64,000 bases of DNA from Actinomycetota bacterium (GTDB lineage Bacteria; Actinomycetota; Acidimicrobiia; Acidimicrobiales; VFJN01). Below, piece after piece: positions 3,501-58,346 of this stretch (position 1 is the stretch's first letter; each line of letters begins with the position of its first letter). The position numbers and the translations under genes are program-made. The stretch covers positions 27,379 through 91,378 of the forward strand of contig JBKPAA010000019.1 of the NCBI GenBank assembly GCA_046726215.1, read 5' to 3'. The notes under the pieces were generated by a model. It saw only the letters and a list, made by a program, of their open reading frames with translations, did no database searches and was not told the origin of the DNA.

Positions 3501-3552
3501 CGTTTTCTTCGCGGGATCGGCCGCCGGAGCGACCAGCCCCGCGGAGAAAACG
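3501..3552. terminator. Imperfect 15-bp inverted repeat between convergent genes (REP-like or bidirectional terminator)
   Basis: CGTTTTCTTCGCGGG ... CCCGCGGAGAAAACG, 1 mismatch. Confidence 0.6.
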
Positions 3553-5679: not shown

Positions 5680-6548
5680 CGACCACCGAGGCAGCCGCGC
5701 CGTCCGCGCCCACGACCCGGAGTCCGTGGTTCGTCCACTCGTGGACGCCGATGAGCTGGCGCGCGTTCGCCGCCCTGCTCGGCCGCGACCTCGTCGTGCT
5801 CCGCAAGGACCTGCCCGCCTTCGTCGCCCGCACCGTGATGCAGCCGGTGCTGCTCATGTTCGTGTTCACCTACGTGTTCCCCAAGATCGGCCAGGGAGTG
5901 GGCAGTGCCGGCGGGGCCTCGGCCGAGGGCGCGTTCAGCACACTGCTGGTGGGGGGCGTGGTGGCCAGCGCCATGATCTTCCAGGGGATCCAGGCGGTGG
6001 CGCTGCCCATGGTGCAGGACTTCGGCTTCACCCGCGAGATCGAGGACAGGGTTCTGGCCCCGATCCCGGTCGAGGGGGTGGCGCTCGAGAAGGTGACCTC
6101 GGGTGCGATCCAGGGCCTGCTGGCCGCCCTGGTGGTCCTGCCCCTCGCCTACGTCATCCCGGCCACCGACGTGCACCTCGACGTCAACTGGCCCGTGACC
6201 CTGACCTTCCTGCCGCTCGCGGCGGTGCTGGGCGCGTCGCTGGGGCTCACCGTCGGCACCCGGGTAGAGCCGCGCCAGGTGCCCCTCGTCTTCAGCCTGC
6301 TCGTGCTGCCCATGACCTTCCTGGGTGCGGTGTACTACCCGTGGCAGGGACTCGAACCCCTCCCCGTGTTGCGCTGGGCCGTGCTGGTGAACCCGCTCGT
6401 CTACCTGTCCGAGGGCGTGCGCATCGGTTTGACCAGCGGCACGATCCCGCACATGAACGGCGTCGTCGTCTATCTCGCTTGCCTCGGCTTCACGGCCGTG
6501 CTCCTGCGAGTGGGGATCAAGGGGTTCCGCCGGCGGGTGCTCACCTGA
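5676..6548 (+). CDS. ABC-2 type permease
   Basis: Six hydrophobic segments, NPLVYLSEG motif, ATGA overlap with the ATPase gene. Confidence 0.9.
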
Positions 6549-7450
6549 TGGCGAGCGTCGCCACCCCGGCCGGCTGGCGGGTCTGGGTCGCCGGCGCGCG
6601 GCCCCGGACCCTTCCGGCTGCCGTGGTGCCGGTGTTGGTGGGGACGGCCTGTGCCGCCGGCCGGGCGGACGTCGTGGCGTGGCGGGCGGTGGCCGCGGGC
6701 GTGGTGGCGCTGGCCCTGCAGGTGGGGACCAACTACGCCAACGACTACAGCGACGGCGTGCGGGGGACCGACCGGGACGACCGGAGGGTCGGGCCCCTCC
6801 GGCTGGTGGGCTCCGGGTTGCGGACGCCCGGGGCCGTCAAGCGGGCGGCGCTGGCGTCGTTCCTGGTCGCCGGCGTGGCGGGGTTGGCCCTGGCCATCGC
6901 GGTCGGCTGGGAGCTGTTGGTGGTCGGGGCGCTGGCCATCGCCGCCGGCTGGTTCTACACGGGCGGCCCCCGCCCGTACGGCTACCTGGGGCTCGGCGAG
7001 CTGTTCGTGTTCGTGTTCTTCGGGGTGGTGGCGACGACCGGCTCCGCCTACGTGCAGGAGGAACGCCTGTCGGGCCTCGCCCTGGCGGCGAGCGTGCCCG
7101 TCGGCCTGCTGGCGACGGCGCTGCTGGTCGTGAACAACCTGCGCGACATCCCCGGCGACAGCGCCGCCGGCAAGCGCACGCTGGCGGTGCGCCTCGGCGA
7201 CCGGCGCACGCGGTGGCTCTACGTGGCGCTGCTGGTGGGCGCGGTAGTCATGGTCCCCGTGGTGGCGGCCGTGGGGGACCGGGCCGGGGCCGCCCTGGCC
7301 CTGGCGGCCGTGCCGCTGGCCCGGCGCCCGGTGACCACCGTGCTGGGTGGCGCCCGTGGCGGCGAACTCATCCCGGTGCTGGGTGATACGGGGCGGGTCC
7401 AGCTCGCGTTCGGCGCCCTGCTGGCGCTCGGCCTCTGGCTGACGGCCTGA
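6548..7450 (+). CDS. menA: 1,4-dihydroxy-2-naphthoate polyprenyltransferase
   Basis: ARPRTLPAA, NYANDYSDG, YGYLGLGE and NNLRDIPGD..GKRTLAV motifs. Confidence 0.95.
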   Translation: MASVATPAGWRVWVAGARPRTLPAAVVPVLVGTACAAGRADVVAWRAVAAGVVALALQVGTNYANDYSDGVRGTDRDDRRVGPLRLVGSGLRTPGAVKRAALASFLVAGVAGLALAIAVGWELLVVGALAIAAGWFYTGGPRPYGYLGLGELFVFVFFGVVATTGSAYVQEERLSGLALAASVPVGLLATALLVVNNLRDIPGDSAAGKRTLAVRLGDRRTRWLYVALLVGAVVMVPVVAAVGDRAGAALALAAVPLARRPVTTVLGGARGGELIPVLGDTGRVQLAFGALLALGLWLTA

Positions 7451-7475: not shown

Positions 7476-7518
7476 GCCCGGGGGGCCCGCGGGTGCCCGG
7501 GGGTCCCGCGGGTGCCCG
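7476..7518. repeat. 19-bp tandem repeat (x2 plus a partial copy)
   Basis: GCCCGGGGGGCCCGCGGGT / GCCCGGGGGTCCCGCGGGT / GCCCG, abutting the 97-bp element. Confidence 0.7.
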
Positions 7519-7613
7519 AGGCAATATGGTCCGCCCCGGGGTTCTCGAGGCAACGGGCACCGGCCCCCGGACCCCGGTGCCTCGTCCTGTCGTCGCCGGA
7601 CCGTATTGCCTCG
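7517..7613 (+). repeat. 97-bp nested-palindrome element (MITE/REPIN-like), copy 1
   Basis: 16-bp terminal IR CGAGGCAATATGGTCC/GGACCGTATTGCCTCG, internal CGAGGC pair, central CCGGCCCCCGG. Confidence 0.85.
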
Positions 7614-7621
7614 CGTTTGGG

Positions 7622-8398
7622 TTACTCGCCCGCCATCTCTGCCAGCCACGGCTCGACCAGCTCCAGGAACCGCGCCGGCTGTTCCAGATGGGCGCTGTGC
7701 CCGGCGCCGGGGACCAGCGCCGTGCGGGCGTTGCCTCCGATGGCCACCGCCGTCCGCCGAGCGATGTCGGCGTACCGTTCGTCGTCCTCGCCGGCCATGA
7801 CGAGGACCGGGATGTCGATGCCCGGCAGCGCCGACCACAGCGGGGCCTGGGAACCGGTCCCCGCGAGCTCCAGGCTCCGGGCGAGCGCCTCGGCGGTGTT
7901 GCCCCGACGCTGGTCCTCGAATCGGGCGCCCCCGGGGAGCCCGGCGAACATCGGCTGGTCGAGCCACCAGCCGACGAACCAGTCCACGCCCTCCACCCGA
8001 ATGCGCTCGGCGAGCGCTTCGTCGCGTAGCCGGCGCTCGGCCCGCTCGGCGTCGTCCTCGATGCCCGGCGTCCCGCCCACGAGGACCAGACCCCGCACCG
8101 CCTCGGGAGCCTCCGTGGCCACGTGCAGGGCCATGCGGGCGCCCATCGAGTAGCCCAGGAGGATCGCCGGGCCGGCGGCCTCGGCCACCAGTCGGCCCGT
8201 GGTCGGGAGGTCGGCGGCGATGCCGGCCGAGCCACCGTGCCCCGGAAGGTCCAGGCGCACGACCTCGTGGTGGGCGCCGAGCGCCGTCGCCACGGGCCCC
8301 CAGCAGCGGCAGGTCTGCCCGAAGCCGTGCAGCAACGCGACCCGGGGGCCGGACCCGTCGCATTCGTCATGTAGCGGCACGGCGGGGAATGCTTGCAT
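7622..8398 (-). CDS. menH: Alpha/beta hydrolase, SHCHC synthase
   Basis: LHGFGQ, DLPGHG, GYSMGAR nucleophile motif, GHSAHLEQP; next to menD; start uncertain (8398 or 8380). Confidence 0.85.
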   Translation of the reverse strand: MQAFPAVPLHDECDGSGPRVALLHGFGQTCRCWGPVATALGAHHEVVRLDLPGHGGSAGIAADLPTTGRLVAEAAGPAILLGYSMGARMALHVATEAPEAVRGLVLVGGTPGIEDDAERAERRLRDEALAERIRVEGVDWFVGWWLDQPMFAGLPGGARFEDQRRGNTAEALARSLELAGTGSQAPLWSALPGIDIPVLVMAGEDDERYADIARRTAVAIGGNARTALVPGAGHSAHLEQPARFLELVEPWLAEMAGE

Positions 8399-8489
8399 GT
8401 CGCATGGCCGTTCCTCTCGGGGGGCTGCGCCCCCGTGCCCCATCGTCGCCCGGCTCCCTGGCGGTCGCTCGGTCGACCGGTCATGAGCT

Positions 8490-10229
8490 GTGCTCATGAC
8501 CGTCGCCCAGCCCCGCTCGCCCGCCGACGTGCAGGCCGCGTTCGCCGCCACGCTGGTCGACGAGTGGGTTCGGTGCGGGGTCCGGCACGCTGTCGTGTGC
8601 CCGGGCTCGCGCTCGACCCCGCTCGCGCTGGCCCTGTCCGAGCGGCCGCAGGTCGCCCTCCAGGTCCACCACGACGAGCGCTCGGGAGGGTTCCTCGCGC
8701 TGGGACTCGGGCTCGCCACCGGGCAACCGGCGGTCGTGCTGACCACCAGCGGCACCGCCGCCGCCGAGCTGCACGCCGCCGTGGTGGAGGCCGACCTGGC
8801 CGGCGTCCCGCTCCTGGCCTGTACCGCCGACCGCCCCCCGGAGCTCCGGGACGTGGGTGCCCCCCAGGCCATCGACCAGGTGCACCTGTTCGGCCGGGCC
8901 GTCCGGTGGTTCGGCGATCCCGGCGTGCCCGACGTCGCGTCGGCGCCCCGGTGGCGCGCCTTCGCCGGGCGGGCTCACGCCGCGACTGTTGGCGGCCGCC
9001 CCGGCCCCGTGCACCTCAACCTGCCGTTCCGGGAGCCGCTGGTGGGCACCGCCGGCTGGTCACCGCCCGGACGCGGCGACCGCCCGTGGGTGGCGACGTC
9101 GGCGGTGGACGGGGCGCCGACGATCGGGGCCGACCCGCCGGCGGAGTTGCAAGAGCTCGCCGGCCGGCGCGGCGTCATCGTGGCGGGGGCGGCGCCCATC
9201 GACGGTCCGGCCCTCCATCGCCTGGCGGAGGCCATGGGGTGGCCGGTGCTGGCGGAGCCGCGCTCGCCGGCGTGGATCCCGGCGGCCACCGGCGTCGTGC
9301 ACCTCGACGCCGTCCTCCGCTCGCCACGCGCCGCCGAAGGGCTGCGGCCCGAGGCGATCCTGCGGGTCGGGGCGCCGGGTGCGTCGCGGGTCGTCAACGA
9401 ATGGCTGGCGGCATCCGGGGCCGACGAGGTCGTCGTGGGTGCGCCCGGATGGTCCGACCCGGCGGCGACGGCGACGGCCGTGATCGACGGACCGCCCGCC
9501 GCCGTGCTGGCGTCGCTCGGGGCTGCGGATCTCCGGCCGGCCCCCGGCGCGTGGCTGGAACGGTGGCGGGCGGCATCGGATGCCGCCGGCTCCGCCGTGG
9601 TCGCAGCCCTGGCGCAGCTACCGGCCCCGAACGAGCCGGCGATCGCGCGCGCGAGCGTTGCGGCCCTGCCCGAGGGCGCCCGGCTGGTGGTGGCGTCCTC
9701 GATGCCCATCCGTGACGTCGAGCGCTACGCCGCGCCGCGGGCCGGCGTGACCGTGCTGGCCAACCGGGGCGCCAACGGCATCGACGGCACCGTGGCCACC
9801 GCGGTCGGCGTCGCGGTGGGATCGGCCGCGCCGACCGCCCTCCTCATCGGCGACATCGCCTTCCTGCACGACAGCAACGGGCTGCTGGGCGCCGCCGGGC
9901 GGGGGATAGACCTGGTATGCGTCGTGGTCGACAACGACGGGGGCGGCATCTTCTCGTTCCTGCCCCAGGCCCGGGAGTTGCCGACCGAGCGGTTCGAGAC
10001 CCTGTTCGGCACCCCCCACGGCCTCGACCTGGTGGCGCTGGCGGCGGCCTACGGCGTCGACGCCCGGGCGCTCGATCCGGACGACGGGATCGACGCCGCC
10101 GTGGGTGAGGCCGTCGCCAAGGGTGGCGTCCACGTCCTCGTCACCCGCACCGATCGGGCCGCCAACGTCGATGCCCACGGCCGGATCGACGCGGCGGTGG
10201 CCGCCGCGGTCGACGCCACCCTGTGCTGA
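8490..10229 (+). CDS. menD: SEPHCHC synthase
   Basis: CPGSRSTPL, DERS, TTSGTA, ADRPPEL, NRGANGIDG, GDIAFLHD and NDGGGIF motifs. Confidence 0.96.
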   Translation: MLMTVAQPRSPADVQAAFAATLVDEWVRCGVRHAVVCPGSRSTPLALALSERPQVALQVHHDERSGGFLALGLGLATGQPAVVLTTSGTAAAELHAAVVEADLAGVPLLACTADRPPELRDVGAPQAIDQVHLFGRAVRWFGDPGVPDVASAPRWRAFAGRAHAATVGGRPGPVHLNLPFREPLVGTAGWSPPGRGDRPWVATSAVDGAPTIGADPPAELQELAGRRGVIVAGAAPIDGPALHRLAEAMGWPVLAEPRSPAWIPAATGVVHLDAVLRSPRAAEGLRPEAILRVGAPGASRVVNEWLAASGADEVVVGAPGWSDPAATATAVIDGPPAAVLASLGAADLRPAPGAWLERWRAASDAAGSAVVAALAQLPAPNEPAIARASVAALPEGARLVVASSMPIRDVERYAAPRAGVTVLANRGANGIDGTVATAVGVAVGSAAPTALLIGDIAFLHDSNGLLGAAGRGIDLVCVVVDNDGGGIFSFLPQARELPTERFETLFGTPHGLDLVALAAAYGVDARALDPDDGIDAAVGEAVAKGGVHVLVTRTDRAANVDAHGRIDAAVAAAVDATLC

Positions 10230-12187: not shown

Positions 12188-12286
12188 CGTACGGGCGTGC
12201 CTCCGGCGGCCGACAACCGGTCGTCACCGTCCGGGGCTCCGCCCCTCGATCACGTGGCCGCCTGCGGCCGCGCCTACGCTGCCCCC

Positions 12287-13678
12287 GTGGCAAGGGCGCA
12301 TTTCCGGATCTTCGGCATCCCCGTGCGGGTCGAGCCGTTCTTCGTGGTCGTCGCCTTCCTGTTCGGCATCCGCCTCGAGCCGCTGTGGGTGGTGTTCGCC
12401 TTCGCCGTCATCGTGTTCGTCTCGATACTGGTCCATGAGCTGGGCCACGCACTGACCTACCGGCTGCTGGGGCAACGCTCGGCCATCGTGTTGCACGGGT
12501 TCGGTGGCTTTACGGTGCCCACCGGGGGCGGCCGGCGGGTGCTCAACAAGCCGAAGTCGATACTGGTGAGCCTCTCGGGTGCGTTCACGCAGCTGGTGGT
12601 GCTCGGCCTGCCTGCGCACTTCGTGTTCTACAGGACCGACTGGGGACTTCAGCAGCGCATCGACTACGCGTTCGACCAGGGCTTCTTCAGCTGGGCGCCG
12701 GTCCTCTACTACATGCAGTGGGTAAGCATCTGGTGGGCGGTGTTCAACCTGCTGCCGATCCGGCCGCTCGACGGCGGGCACGTGGCCGAGGAGCTGGTCG
12801 GCTTCGAGAACGCGTGCAAGCTCTCGATCGCCGCCGCCATCGTCGCCGGGTTCCTCGCCTACCGGGCGTCGTTCATCGGCCTCTTCGGCCTGCTGTTCTT
12901 CGGCCTGTTCGCCTACATGAACTTCCAGGAGCTGCGCGCCGGCCAGCGCACCGGCGTGTTCGACGTCGATGCCCCGGAGGGCGGCACCCGTTCGGGGGCG
13001 GGCCGCCGCTTCGGCCGCCGTGCGCGCCCGCGGGGGAGCCCCGACCTGCAGGTGGTCAGGCCGCCCGGGTCGGCGCAGCTGCCCGACCTCAGCCCCCGGC
13101 CCTCGACCGCCGAGGCAGAGACCCGCGCGTGGAATGCCCTGCGGGCCGGGGAGGGCGACCGGGCGGCGGCGATCATGCGCCAGGCGGGCGGGGGTGGGAA
13201 CGCGTTCCTGCGGGCGAGCATCGCCCTGTTCACGGGCCCGGTGGAGATGTCCGACGACCTGTTCGAGGCCGCGTACAGCCACGACCCCGGGGGACCGCCC
13301 AACCTGGTGCCCGCCACGCTGCTGGCCGATCGGGGCCGGGCGGTGCCGGTGGCGGCCAGGCTGGTGGCGTCGGGCCGGGCCGGCGTGGAGGCGGCCAGTG
13401 GCCTCCAGACCCACCTGCACTACGCAGAGCGGTTCCGGGCCGCCGCCGAGGTCGGCGAGCAGGTGTTCGCGGCCGGCCCACAGAGCCCGCCGCAGACGGC
13501 CTTCGAGGTGGCGTGCTCGTGGGCGAGGGCGGGCCAGCCCGACGAGGCGCTGCGCTGGGTGGAGGCGGCGGTGGACGCCGGCTTCCACGCCCCGGGGTTG
13601 CTCGACGGTGAGCCGGACCTGGCGAGCGTGCGGGCGCTGCCCGGCTGGGCGGCAGTGCGGTCCCGCCTGTCGGCCTGA
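12287..13678 (+). CDS. Site-2 protease (M50) with a C-terminal TPR-like domain
   Basis: HELGH, FNLLPIRPLDGG, several TM helices; C-terminal ACSWARAG..DEAL..AVDAGF..DPDL helical repeat. Confidence 0.88.
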   Translation: MARAHFRIFGIPVRVEPFFVVVAFLFGIRLEPLWVVFAFAVIVFVSILVHELGHALTYRLLGQRSAIVLHGFGGFTVPTGGGRRVLNKPKSILVSLSGAFTQLVVLGLPAHFVFYRTDWGLQQRIDYAFDQGFFSWAPVLYYMQWVSIWWAVFNLLPIRPLDGGHVAEELVGFENACKLSIAAAIVAGFLAYRASFIGLFGLLFFGLFAYMNFQELRAGQRTGVFDVDAPEGGTRSGAGRRFGRRARPRGSPDLQVVRPPGSAQLPDLSPRPSTAEAETRAWNALRAGEGDRAAAIMRQAGGGGNAFLRASIALFTGPVEMSDDLFEAAYSHDPGGPPNLVPATLLADRGRAVPVAARLVASGRAGVEAASGLQTHLHYAERFRAAAEVGEQVFAAGPQSPPQTAFEVACSWARAGQPDEALRWVEAAVDAGFHAPGLLDGEPDLASVRALPGWAAVRSRLSA

Positions 13679-13694: not shown

Positions 13695-13790
13695 CGAGGC
13701 AATACGGCCCGCCGCACCACTCTCGAGGCAATGAGGACCGGCCCCCGGCTCTGGTTGCCTCCGAGCGTTTCGCCGGGCCCTATTGCCTCG
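13695..13790 (+). repeat. 96-bp nested-palindrome element, copy 2
   Basis: CGAGGCAATACGGCCC ... GGGCCCTATTGCCTCG, internal CTCGAGGCAA, central CCGGCCCCCGG. Confidence 0.85.
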
Positions 13791-13800
13791 GCACCCCCGC

Positions 13801-14259
13801 CTACTCGTAGTAGCGGAACAGGTTCTCGGCCACGCACGCCGGCTTGGCGGCGCCCTCGACCTCGAACGTGAACCTCTCCTTCACCTGCACGCCGCCGGCG
13901 ATCTCGGTGACCTCGAGCAGCTCGATGCCGAGCCGCAGCTTCGAGCCCACGGGGACCGGCGACGGGAACCGCACCCTGTCGCAGCCGTAGTTCACGGCCA
14001 TCTTGATGCCGTCGACCCGCGTCACCTGCGGCGCCAGGCGGGGCCCGAGCGCCAGGGTCAGGTAGCCGTGGGCGATGGGACCCCCGAACGGGCTCTCGCG
14101 ATTGGCGCGCTCGACGTCGACGTGGATCCACTGGTGGTCGCCGGTGGCGTCGGCAAACAGGTTCACCTGCTCCTGCGTGATCTCGACGTAGTCGCTGTAG
14201 CCGAGATGCTGGCCCACGAGGTCCCGCAACCCGGCGATTCCCTGCACGATGGTGGTCAT
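13801..14259 (-). CDS. MaoC-family dehydratase
   Basis: FADATGDHQWIHVD, IAHGYLTL, NYGCDRVRF and KPACVAE motifs. Confidence 0.93.
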   Translation of the reverse strand: MTTIVQGIAGLRDLVGQHLGYSDYVEITQEQVNLFADATGDHQWIHVDVERANRESPFGGPIAHGYLTLALGPRLAPQVTRVDGIKMAVNYGCDRVRFPSPVPVGSKLRLGIELLEVTEIAGGVQVKERFTFEVEGAAKPACVAENLFRYYE

Positions 14260-33772: not shown

Positions 33773-34318
33773 GTGGCAGCGCCCAGCCACTACGACGTCC
33801 TCGGTGTGCCGGCGAGCGCCACCCAGGCTGAGGTGCGGGCGGCGTACCGGGCGGCCGCCCGCGACCATCATCCCGACGCCGGGGGTGACGCCGGCCGCAT
33901 GCGGGCCCTCAACGTCGCCTGGGCCGTGCTGGGCGACCCGGTCCGCCGGGCCGCCTACGACCGGGCCCTGGCCCGGGGGGACGCCGACGCGCCGTTCGTG
34001 GCGCCGGACGCGGCACGGACGCCCTCCGCCTGGTCGACCGACGGCGACCATTGGCCGATCGACCCCGACGCCCGGCTCACGGCGGAGGAGTGGGCCGACC
34101 TCGCCGACGGTCGGCCAATAGCGCCGACGAAGGCGCTCGCGGGCTGGTGGGCCATCCTGCCGCCAGCGACGTTGCTGTTCGCCGTGGGCCTGTTCGTGGC
34201 GGGCATCTTCTTCACCGCCCCGGCGCTGATGGGGTTCGCCGCCGGGGCGTTCATCATGGCGGGCGGACTGTTCGTGCTCGCCCCCCTGCGGGCAATGACG
34301 CATCGCGAGAAGCAGTGA
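33773..34318 (+). CDS. J-domain (DnaJ-like) membrane protein
   Basis: HYDVLGV, HPD motif, LGDP.RRAAYD; two C-terminal TM helices. Confidence 0.88.
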   Translation: MAAPSHYDVLGVPASATQAEVRAAYRAAARDHHPDAGGDAGRMRALNVAWAVLGDPVRRAAYDRALARGDADAPFVAPDAARTPSAWSTDGDHWPIDPDARLTAEEWADLADGRPIAPTKALAGWWAILPPATLLFAVGLFVAGIFFTAPALMGFAAGAFIMAGGLFVLAPLRAMTHREKQ

Positions 34319-34343: not shown

Positions 34344-34440
34344 CGAGGCAATACGGTTCGCGCCGCAGCTCCCGAGGCATGGGGGCCCGGGGGCCGGAGC
34401 GTATGGCCTCGAGAGTGCCGGATCGGACCGGATTGCCTCG
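34344..34440 (-). repeat. 97-bp nested-palindrome element, copy 3 (inverted relative to copies 1 and 2)
   Basis: CGAGGCAATACGGT ... ACCGGATTGCCTCG; the reverse complement contains CTCGAGGC and CCGGCCCCCGG at matching offsets. Confidence 0.85.
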
Positions 34441-34529: not shown

Positions 34530-34847
34530 ATGCCGGAAGTCGCTTACATCGTCAAGCTCACCGCCGCCGACGGCAAGCGCGATGAGGCCATGGCCGCCCT
34601 GGGCCGCCTCGTGGACGCCGCCGAATCCGAGCCGGGGACGCTCCAGTACGCGCTCTGCGTCGACAGCACCGATCCCGCCACGATCTGGTTCACCGAGTTG
34701 TACGCCGACGAGGCCGCGTTCAACGCCCACGTGTCGAGCCCGGCGATGGCCGAGGTGATGGGCTCCTTGGGTGGCCTGCTCGGCGGGCCGGCCGACATGC
34801 GCCGGGTGGAGATCGTCAAGCGCAAGGGCGACGGCGCTCCCGGGTGA
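34530..34847 (+). CDS. Putative quinol monooxygenase (ABM/YgiN family)
   Basis: EPGTLQY, ELYADEAAFNAH motifs. Confidence 0.85.
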   Translation: MPEVAYIVKLTAADGKRDEAMAALGRLVDAAESEPGTLQYALCVDSTDPATIWFTELYADEAAFNAHVSSPAMAEVMGSLGGLLGGPADMRRVEIVKRKGDGAPG

Positions 34848-44345: not shown

Positions 44346-44384
44346 GCCGCCCGCGCCCGCGACGGCGTGCGCCCGCCAACCGTT

Positions 44385-44427
44385 CCGGCGCCGATCTCTC
44401 GCGAGTACCGCAAGGAAACGGCGCCGG
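44385..44427. repeat. REP-like palindrome family B, copy 1
   Basis: CCGGCGCCGATCTCTCGCGAGTACCGCAAGGAAACGGCGCCGG; related copy at 58070-58111. Confidence 0.75.
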
Positions 44428-44461
44428 TTCGTGCTCGGGTGCCGCCGCTAGGGTCATCGAC

Positions 44462-46335: not shown

Positions 46336-46410
46336 GCGGGCGTAGCCCAACTGGCAGGAGGCACGGGCCTCAAAATCCCGACAGTGTGGGTTCGAATCCC
46401 ACCGCCCGCA
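46336..46410 (+). tRNA. tRNA-Leu (anticodon CAA), short variable arm, CCA not encoded
   Basis: GCGGGCG/CGCCCGC acceptor stem, TGG D-loop, CTCAAAA anticodon loop, GTGGG-TTCGAAT-CCCAC T-arm. Confidence 0.92.
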
Positions 46411-57695: not shown

Positions 57696-58346
57696 CTACG
57701 CGCTCAGGCGGAGCCGGTGGAGCCAGGCGCGGGCCCGTGCGAGCACGTCGGGTCGGACACGCGGCTTCGCCGGGGTGGCCGGTGCCGCCCGGGTCGTAGC
57801 CGCTTCGGTCACCCCGTCGACCAGCAGCCCGGCCAGCTCTCCGGCCGCGGCCACCGGCACGCGGACGGCCCCGGTACAGACCTCGTCGCGCCAGGTGCTC
57901 ACCACGAAGGTCCGCCGCTCGGGGTGCCAGGTCGTGCGCAGGTAGGTGCCATCACGGCGGGCGTCCTCGATGAGCACCCGACGCCGGTGCGCCGCTCCAT
58001 CCCCCGTGGTGCGAGTGTGCGCCGATGCCGGGCCAACTGTCGAGCGGCCGACCTCGGGCCAACCGGCAACGGCGCCGATTCGTCGCGAGTACCGCAAGAA
58101 ATTGGCGCCGGAACGATCGGGGGGCGAGAAATTGGCGCCGGAACGTCGCCCCGCAGGGGACGGAGAGCGAGGTCCGGTCGCCGGGTCGGTCGCCGGCGTG
58201 ACCCCTTGGGCTCGACGCGCCGCACCGGCCGGGGGCAGCCCACCGCACCCGCCGGCCGGCACGGCCGGAACCGGCCCGCCTGCCGGCTCGGGAGGCGACA
58301 GCTTCCTCCCGAGCGGGCGCCGAACCGCTCCCGCGCCGGTACTCAT
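57696..58346 (-). CDS. Hypothetical protein: conserved-looking C-terminal domain, repeat-derived N-terminus
   Basis: EDARR..YLRTTWHPE..VVSTWR..CTG..RV domain; the reading frame stays open through the repeats at 58070-58145. Confidence 0.6.
   Translation of the reverse strand: MSTGAGAVRRPLGRKLSPPEPAGGPVPAVPAGGCGGLPPAGAARRAQGVTPATDPATGPRSPSPAGRRSGANFSPPDRSGANFLRYSRRIGAVAGWPEVGRSTVGPASAHTRTTGDGAAHRRRVLIEDARRDGTYLRTTWHPERRTFVVSTWRDEVCTGAVRVPVAAAGELAGLLVDGVTEAATTRAAPATPAKPRVRPDVLARARAWLHRLRLSA
58070..58145. repeat. REP-like palindrome family B, copy 2, with a duplicated right arm
   Basis: CGGCGCCGATTCGTCGCGAGTACCGCAAGAAATTGGCGCCGG; AGAAATTGGCGCCGGAACG repeated at 58097 and 58127. Confidence 0.78.

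Follow-up and report, generated by a model that had tools for sequence, protein, structure and literature searches.

A dispersed four-unit palindromic repeat of Acidimicrobiales and an AbiEi-DUF559 gene bracketed by the same repeat

A non-coding repeat of 96-97 bp is scattered in 94 copies over the genome studied here and also brackets a gene of the AbiEi-DUF559 type, and we estimate at roughly 60% the probability that the product of this gene binds, cuts and spreads the repeat. The gene is enclosed by its own subfamily of the repeat, copies of that subfamily are dispersed elsewhere, and their internal spacing is fixed. Orthologous sites are filled in some genomes and unfilled in others, and groups of unlinked copies have spacers in common.

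Three copies lie in the window, by which we mean the whole stretch of 64,000 nucleotides analysed, and the four-unit pattern was found again at the positions given in the original prediction (Table 1), with three matches in the window and none in 100 dinucleotide shuffles. Each copy indeed has four GAGGC units arranged forward-forward-reverse-reverse and 29 nt apart on each side, or 28 on the right of copy 2, the third unit of which is without its terminal C. Copies 1 and 3 measure 97 bp and copy 2 96 bp. Copy 3 is inverted relative to the other two, and its core on the + strand is CCGGGGGCCGG. The core had been described as invariant; it is a near-invariant CCC in subfamily A (96% pairwise identity), but subfamilies B and C have other cores. 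The terminal complementarity that each copy was thought to keep is imperfect, with one G-T pair in copy 1 and one mismatch in copy 2, and across copies it is about what shuffled partners give. Folding of all six strands, two per copy, gave z scores from -4.9 to -6.2. Copies 1 and 2 are flanked by convergent genes, of the UbiA family (6548-7450, +) and alpha/beta-hydrolase type (7622-8398, -) for copy 1, and for peptidase M50 (12254-13678, +) and MaoC (13801-14259, -) for copy 2, and copy 3 by tandem DnaJ-domain (33773-34318, +) and ABM (34530-34847, +) genes. No T-tailed terminator was found at copies 1 and 2, in a test that leaves aside actinobacterial terminators without T tails. No described family had been recognised in the element, and an Rfam scan of the window at the gathering threshold agrees, matching only a tRNA and nothing at the element; a tRNA gene lies at 46336-46410. 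The window also holds a different repeat of about 92-98 bp (8403-8500; G000:C19:35781-35878), located before a thiamine-pyrophosphate-enzyme gene, with 13 matches in the host genome (G000) and dozens in G003, G005 and G008, often in tandem at a 92-bp period.

Table 1. Coordinates of the repeat copies, of related palindromes and of the genes discussed in the text; positions without a genome handle are those of the window
Feature	Position	Strand	Basis
Copy 1, subfamily A, CCC core on +	7517..7613	+	sequence, pattern match, shuffles
Copy 1, unit 1, outer, forward	7517..7533	+	sequence, alignment
Copy 1, left spacer, constant length, changing sequence	7534..7545	.	copy comparison
Copy 1, inner palindrome: unit 2, 3-bp core (7564-7566), unit 3	7546..7584	.	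alignment
Copy 1, right spacer, constant length, changing sequence, not complementary to left spacer	7585..7596	.	
Copy 1, unit 4, outer, reverse	7597..7613	-	sequence, alignment
Copy 2, subfamily A, 96 bp	13695..13790	+	sequence, pattern match
Copy 3, subfamily A, opposite orientation	34344..34440	-	sequence, pattern match
C117 sister-family palindrome, ~50 bp	3501..3552	.	
C118 sister-family palindrome, ~50 bp	44381..44430	.	
C118 sister-family palindrome, second, then partial unit	58070..58114	.	
AbiEi-DUF559 gene with subfamily A copies on both sides; candidate partner of copies 1-3	G000:C15:86931-87959		
AbiEi-DUF559 gene with subfamily B copies on both sides	G000:C65:22070-23050		
Sixth paralog, internally deleted	G000:C33:25098-25388		
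Probable DNA-damage regulon genes with motif	G000:C19:86654, C66:20916, C59:15448, C40:45954, C22:53764, C28:4037, C21:2567, C17:73236		
First-unit tandem arrays	G000:C16:1091-1331, C15:86713-86866, C19:5068-5343, C57:11027-11182; also L276, L277		

The host genome (3.9 Mb in 141 contigs, 71% GC, 82% complete) contains many further copies, as had been anticipated from the three in the window. A regular expression found 71, and 94 full-length copies were obtained after the hits of an nhmmer profile search of the contigs were added. Three subfamilies were distinguished: A, the type of the window, with 55 copies, B with 9, and C with 30 copies that are shorter by one base. Of the A copies, five, on C10 and C93, may belong to a single array that the assembly broke up. 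According to our own gene calls (3709 genes), 86 copies are intergenic, 3 are inside predicted genes and 5 are at contig edges. The intergenic copies lie between tandem (53), convergent (27) or divergent (6) genes, and the 1338 gaps of at least 100 bp in the genome comprise 737 tandem, 157 convergent and 444 divergent ones; convergent gaps are thus enriched in copies (27/86 versus 157/1338) and divergent gaps depleted. Copies are mostly downstream of genes, and the orientation of the core relative to transcription is 16 versus 13. The element has terminal inverted repeats and no coding capacity. Among 61 genomes, the 97-bp pattern is present in 15, including all ten relatives of the genus, and the 96-bp pattern in 19, neither being found in these genomes outside the family of the host; viral contigs gave no match to the element pattern. 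On one side of some elements, the first unit and some flank are amplified in tandem with periods of 29-49 nt (Table 1).

A gene consistently flanked by the element, which the original prediction had proposed to look for, exists outside the window. Two single genes enclosed by neighbouring copies of the same subfamily, on C15 (subfamily A) and C65 (subfamily B), encode proteins that are 57% identical and both match AbiEi_4 and DUF559 above the cut-off, with a name in NCBIfam for neither; from its flanking sequence, the C15 gene is the putative partner of the window's copies. The expectation of a transposase of the RAYT/HUH kind or a nuclease was borne out in its second part, a predicted nuclease. 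For the RAYT/HUH kind, no match to Y1_Tnp or REP_Tyr_transpos (PF01797, NF047646) was found in the 82%-complete genome, and a partner of that kind was rejected, the partner having AbiEi_4 and DUF559 domains. The chance of bracketing is about 5e-4 for one given gene. About 1.7 bracketed genes are expected by chance, and a further one, unrelated to the other two, was observed on C69, between an A and a weak B copy. All five near-full-length paralogs of the genome are bracketed. The repeat ends about 60 bp upstream of the start of the partner gene, and in 9 of 11 genes with a typed core the CCC is on the sense strand on both sides. Next to the partner genes lie acyl-CoA dehydrogenase genes, TauE and a convergent gene that matched no family; no transposase was found between neighbouring copies within 3.5 kb.

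Each of the three other paralogs, C117 (intact), C118 and C123 (both frameshifted), has a palindrome of its own, about 50 bp long, on both sides. These sister families measure 47-50 bp and are dispersed too, with about 51, 42 and 26 copies, respectively, and the C117 and C118 families have members in the window. A sixth paralog, on C33, carries the promoter motif described below, its own palindrome upstream and a collapsed version of that palindrome downstream; three paralog copies are therefore frameshifted or deleted. A further palindrome family of about 47 bp, intermediate between the C117 and C123 types, was observed at G000:C40:25201, C43:21333, C98:22362 and other places, and no cognate gene for it was found in the assembly. 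Likewise, the 82%-complete assembly gave no cognate gene for the 30 copies of subfamily C.

The association was then followed in 160 homologous loci from genomes and metagenomes, in which proteins and loci are labelled Acidimicrobiales; 120 of these are non-redundant and have full flanks. A shared repeat is present on both sides in 96 of the 120, compared with 2 of 300 control genes, and absent in 24; at the acyl-CoA dehydrogenase locus, paralogous ends of the neighbours may contribute to some of the inverted scores. All six loci with at least 78% identity to the C15 protein have the type A repeat, and some relatives have the inner two-unit palindrome alone. Repeat type clusters on the protein tree, with 10 changes versus a shuffled mean of 20.9 and none of 200 shuffles as low (35 rows, selected to have an open frame and a flank of four units); because flanking repeats are inherited with the gene, this clustering taken alone indicates linkage and not recognition. 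A close homolog (E < 1e-80) occurs in 11 of 60 relatives, and all 11 carry the four-unit pattern. The genome G003 (92% complete) has 16 copies and no homolog was found in it, and 18 of the 61 genomes have no homolog at all. The B-type gene and about 20 related loci (L001 etc.) sit between two convergent acyl-CoA dehydrogenase genes, where the flanking repeat changes type in place (A, B, C, D, two-unit). The same upstream neighbour recurs in 21 of 69 homologous loci, which have identities of 47-63% to the query protein, and there are 34 neighbourhood clusters overall. No full-length homolog was found on 72,556 plasmids or 50,697 phages; ten plasmid matches cover the AbiEi half alone. Judged from these loci, the AbiEi-DUF559 gene is mostly resident.

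Upstream of the gene, a TGTCRBA motif is located 19-24 nt before the start codon in 54 of the 120 homologous loci, compared with 44 of the 3709 host genes. Among 20 of these 44 genes, picked by eye and scanned, eight have a role in DNA repair or replication, namely uvrB, lhr, rarA, tag, a gyrB-family gene, a PD-(D/E)XK nuclease, a uvrD-like helicase and radA. The motif also precedes genes without a family match (C47:20638, C47:26606, C108:5314, C120:36451), and an adjacent pair of WYL genes is present on C31. The motif may correspond to that of PafBC/RecA-NDp. PafBC activates repair genes via a RecA-independent promoter motif across actinobacteria (PMC8223512, PMC6789036). The common upstream motif probably marks a DNA-damage regulon, and induction of the partner gene by damage appears rather likely.

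Site histories were read in relatives, where unfilled alleles, which the original prediction had proposed as a check, were seen for all three window copies. The site of copy 1 is filled in one of five relatives, the others holding about 14-73 bp, two of them with another palindrome; that of copy 2 is filled in two of five, with gaps of 1-51 bp in the rest; that of copy 3 is readable in two relatives and empty in both. Ten of 15 loci of G003 map on both sides to G000 and eight of the ten are filled there, so most copies must be old and their spacers drift in place. At one matched site subfamily B stands in place of A in G000, and at one the core is flipped between conserved spacers. Sharing of both spacers across all A copies is weak, with 17 pairs versus a shuffled mean of 10.4 and maximum of 21. 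In G009, seven unlinked loci have shared spacers and six a shared tail of about 34 nt. By our reading, six young loci there sit in remnants of B units, and two young copies start exactly 29 nt after a B unit, inside older B elements. Orthologs of these two in-register sites are plain B in G004 (both sites) and G007 (one site), and one in-register site is unfilled in G007 and G008. This looks like recombination copying at unit boundaries and not like cut-and-paste with duplication, and host recombination alone could suffice for it. The loci L268-L274 of G009, which carry the young element and the tail of about 34 nt, in tandem at a 128-bp period at one site, lie in older elements, the far end of which is reduced to a short palindrome; their sequences suggest a small circular or tandem intermediate.

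Target duplications, sought in two tests, showed no excess in 60 copies at offsets 0-5, nor in 61 copies with 45-nt flanks (6.18 versus 6.12), although old copies could have lost them; one G009/G004 site has a possible short duplication relative to the unfilled allele. The MITE assignment was accordingly rejected, and of the MITE/REPIN-like label given to the element, a dispersed, non-coding, REPIN-like repeat with fixed spacing is what stands. Several other observations concern the sites themselves. In L279 and L270 the element lies in the last codons of an opposite-strand gene relative to the unfilled allele, and the end of this gene appears to have been replaced. Another palindrome family fills, in L047 (G002) and at G000:C120:4738-4837, sites that hold the A element in relatives. 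Shared hotspots were considered for G000 and rejected, as 2 of the 94 copies share their gap with a different repeat family, which does not exceed the background of 5.6%. In contigs of four DNA runs, no joint skipping a copy appeared among the matches listed.

Several of these results would also suit a different role, in which a damage-induced host factor would make use of the dispersed sites in repair, in organising the chromosome or in controlling transcript 3' ends, and the copies would spread passively via host recombination and slippage. The promoter motif in common with uvrB, lhr, rarA, tag, radA and the uvrD-like gene, the recurrent upstream neighbour, the lack of full-length homologs on the plasmids and phages searched, the mappable G003 sites that are filled in G000 too, and the preference for convergent over divergent gaps all agree with it. 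Such a domestication has to be set against several paralogs, each with a different repeat family and three of them broken, the turnover of repeat types at one locus, the genomes without any homolog and a young lineage that invades older elements, and we consider it unlikely. It would be partly compatible with the view of a mobile repeat and its nuclease, as has been argued for REPIN-RAYT (10.1101/2021.07.10.451892).

Comparison of the copies indicates which features of the element are kept. Subfamily A units are 76-87% pairwise identical, the value for outer units being inflated by the way the copies were collected, versus 43-44% for the spacers, and the lengths of spacers and core are identical in 47 of 50 A copies. 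The proposal that structure and spacing are selected, and not sequence, is not supported: the spacing is fixed, but the units are conserved in sequence and pairing is at chance. In 22 aligned copies from four genomes, 86.2% of cells at variable stem positions are paired versus 86.3% after shuffling, and the covariation score is 0.055 versus 0.054; the measure of further pair types alone is high (10/500 shuffles), mostly through G-U. A permutation test on 84 of the 94 copies, with array members and unparsed copies dropped, found a within-subfamily signal for no unit pair other than the outer stem of A, where it was marginal (p = 0.044, in one of six tests). Complementarity of the spacers is below chance (5.29 versus 5.84 of 13). 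Real copies have a folding energy of -59.6 kcal/mol versus -61.2 for two-copy chimeras, worse than all 40 chimera sets. Covariation within a subfamily, which had been suggested as a check on the structure, was thus seen in none of three tests. When subfamilies are pooled, all six unit pairs covary, same-strand pairs included, meaning that the four units change together as one repeated site. Signs of a structured RNA were also missing: no Rfam match, no compensatory covariation and no strand preference. No subfamily A flank column is conserved above about 55%, which leaves no conserved flanking tag of the GTAG type.

The structure of the partner, modelled from 113 sequences (pLDDT 89.6), was compared by Foldseek, on which the fold assignment is based. 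The top matches are AbiEi (6y8q, E 1.8e-5) and Rv2827c (1zel), followed by the Vsr-like 3r3p (I-Bth0305I) and 3hrl, and the protein is thus predicted to be an AbiEi fold plus a Vsr-like nuclease. Residues S206, E209, D241, E252, D254, H259, D268 and R271 are invariant in the 113 sequences; by our own matching, E209, D241, E252, D254, H259 and D268 agree with EDxHD, the motif of Vsr-like homing endonucleases (PMC3239194), and DUF559 has been grouped with Vsr (PMC3424549). AbiEi binds a pair of 23-bp inverted repeats with 3 bp between them, and for Rv2827c the number of bound repeats is four (PMC7319586). In the inner palindrome, each arm has 18 conserved bases and a few semi-conserved ones, with a 3-bp core between the arms; this geometry resembles the AbiEi operator and makes the palindrome a candidate operator-like duplex site; in the four-unit form one more site is added 29 bp outward on each side. 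Binding of the repeat units by the partner protein is regarded as probable.

The same partnership could act on another substrate, a folded single strand or cruciform with required mismatches, as in RAYT-REP, at which the Vsr-like domain would nick at a mismatch. Six stem columns are unpaired in 12-16 of the 22 aligned copies. They vary on both sides, as neutral positions would, and fit don't-care positions of a duplex site, but the bulge of E. coli REPs is required for cleavage (PMC8266576) and Vsr cuts at T:G mismatches (PMC3424549, PMC3239194), so that mismatches at fixed places give the hairpin some standing. The strong folding of both strands and the polarity of the element, seen in its sense-strand CCC, point the same way. 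Opposed to this are the missing compensatory signal, the spacers less complementary than chance, the chimeras that fold better than real copies, and an N-terminal fold belonging to a binder of duplex inverted repeats (PMC7319586). Recognition of the repeat as a hairpin seems quite improbable to us, and recognition as duplex is the form that we would moderately favour.

An ordinary MITE or REP, mobilised by an IS transposase or a RAYT, or else a terminator, with the AbiEi-DUF559 gene incidental in either case, is a very improbable reading of the element and largely refuted by the 96 bracketed homologs, each with its own repeat type, and it is further opposed by the missing Y1_Tnp and REP_Tyr_transpos matches, the lack of a target-duplication excess, of transposases between neighbouring copies and of T-tailed terminators at copies 1 and 2, although the terminal inverted repeats, the position mostly downstream of genes, the one possible duplication and a mobiliser that could be missing from the 82%-complete assembly speak for it.

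On the preferred explanation, DNA damage would lead to synthesis of the partner protein, which would bind the four units as double-stranded operator-like sites; its Vsr-like domain would cut in or near the units, and repair from another copy would plant or replace elements, giving slow spread by cut-and-repair copying. The copies adjoining the gene may also autoregulate it. That the nuclease drives the spread is a step we rate only a little better than even. The system might further be a second, independently evolved replicator of the REP type, in which a damage-triggered AbiEi-Vsr-like fusion copies its operator-derived repeat, an idea that we offer tentatively and hold at slightly under even odds. 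The autoregulatory operator of an antitoxin would here have become a mobile repeat once a Vsr-like nuclease was fused to the AbiEi DNA-binding protein; cutting on damage and repair would copy the repeat, with no target duplication, to new sites or into older repeats with the unit register kept, and each paralog would maintain its own repeat population.

How short palindromic repeats spread in bacteria without RAYTs is an open question, and one whole REP class is without a known transposase in the account given by PMC3733652. The repeat family described here comes with a named, intact candidate enzyme, and a single genome offers several cognate and non-cognate pairs as specificity controls, together with a predicted binding geometry and a predicted inducing signal. 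If the proposal is true, a common actinobacterial gene now labelled antitoxin or repair endonuclease would be re-annotated, many solitary 'AbiEi antitoxin / DUF559' genes of actinobacteria would gain a function and much of the intergenic palindromic DNA of Acidimicrobiia would be accounted for; a nuclease family with members recognising different long sites could also be useful in itself. No description of the repeat or of a DUF559-repeat pairing was found in the literature within reach, which excludes most subscription journals, and in that literature the pairing of a repeat with a partner is in print for an unrelated transposase only.

The known systems are compared here as presented in the sources cited. 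AbiEi/Rv2827c operators of type IV toxin-antitoxin systems (PMC7319586) resemble our system in three ways: the N-terminal two thirds of our protein have the same predicted fold (6y8q, 1zel), inverted repeats separated by 3 bp lie directly upstream of the gene, and four sites have a precedent there. They differ in that our protein carries a fused nuclease domain, and that our repeat is found downstream of the gene as well, and at about 90 sites elsewhere, and stops well upstream of the start instead of covering it. No AbiEii toxin gene (PF08843) adjoins the partner or was found in the genome, and a type IV toxin-antitoxin pair was rejected. In I-Bth0305I (PMC3239194) a Vsr-like catalytic domain with the same residue class likewise stands behind a DNA-binding domain, and this enzyme is a precedent for a Vsr-like fold driving mobility by cut and repair. 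In our case, however, the DNA-binding part is AbiEi in place of NUMOD, what is dispersed is a short repeat without the coding sequence of the enzyme, and the gene is free-standing and intergenic, with no intron or intein, for which reason an intron or intein homing system was rejected. MITEs and mycobacterial MIRUs (40-100 bp, 40-50 copies in an actinobacterial genus; PMC3184786) are also short, non-autonomous, structured and dispersed, but here there are no target-site duplications and no IS partner was found; the comparison with MIRUs is by description only. The closest likeness in behaviour is to REPIN-RAYT systems or REPtrons (PMC8266576, 10.1101/2021.07.10.451892), in which palindromes of about 100 bp, their arms conserved and their spacers variable, likewise occur outside genes in many copies. 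There too, the cognate gene is flanked on both sides by its own repeat, a genome has several such pairs, turnover is slow, inheritance is mostly vertical and plasmids lack the system. In contrast, our partner is of AbiEi fold and Vsr-like where theirs is an HUH tyrosine transposase, the element lacks a conserved GTAG-type tag, its four units with a 29-nt period are none of them palindromes in themselves, and the promoter motif of the gene is in common with DNA-repair genes. With a partner that is not HUH and no tag, the element appears to work like REPIN-RAYT but is no member of that family.
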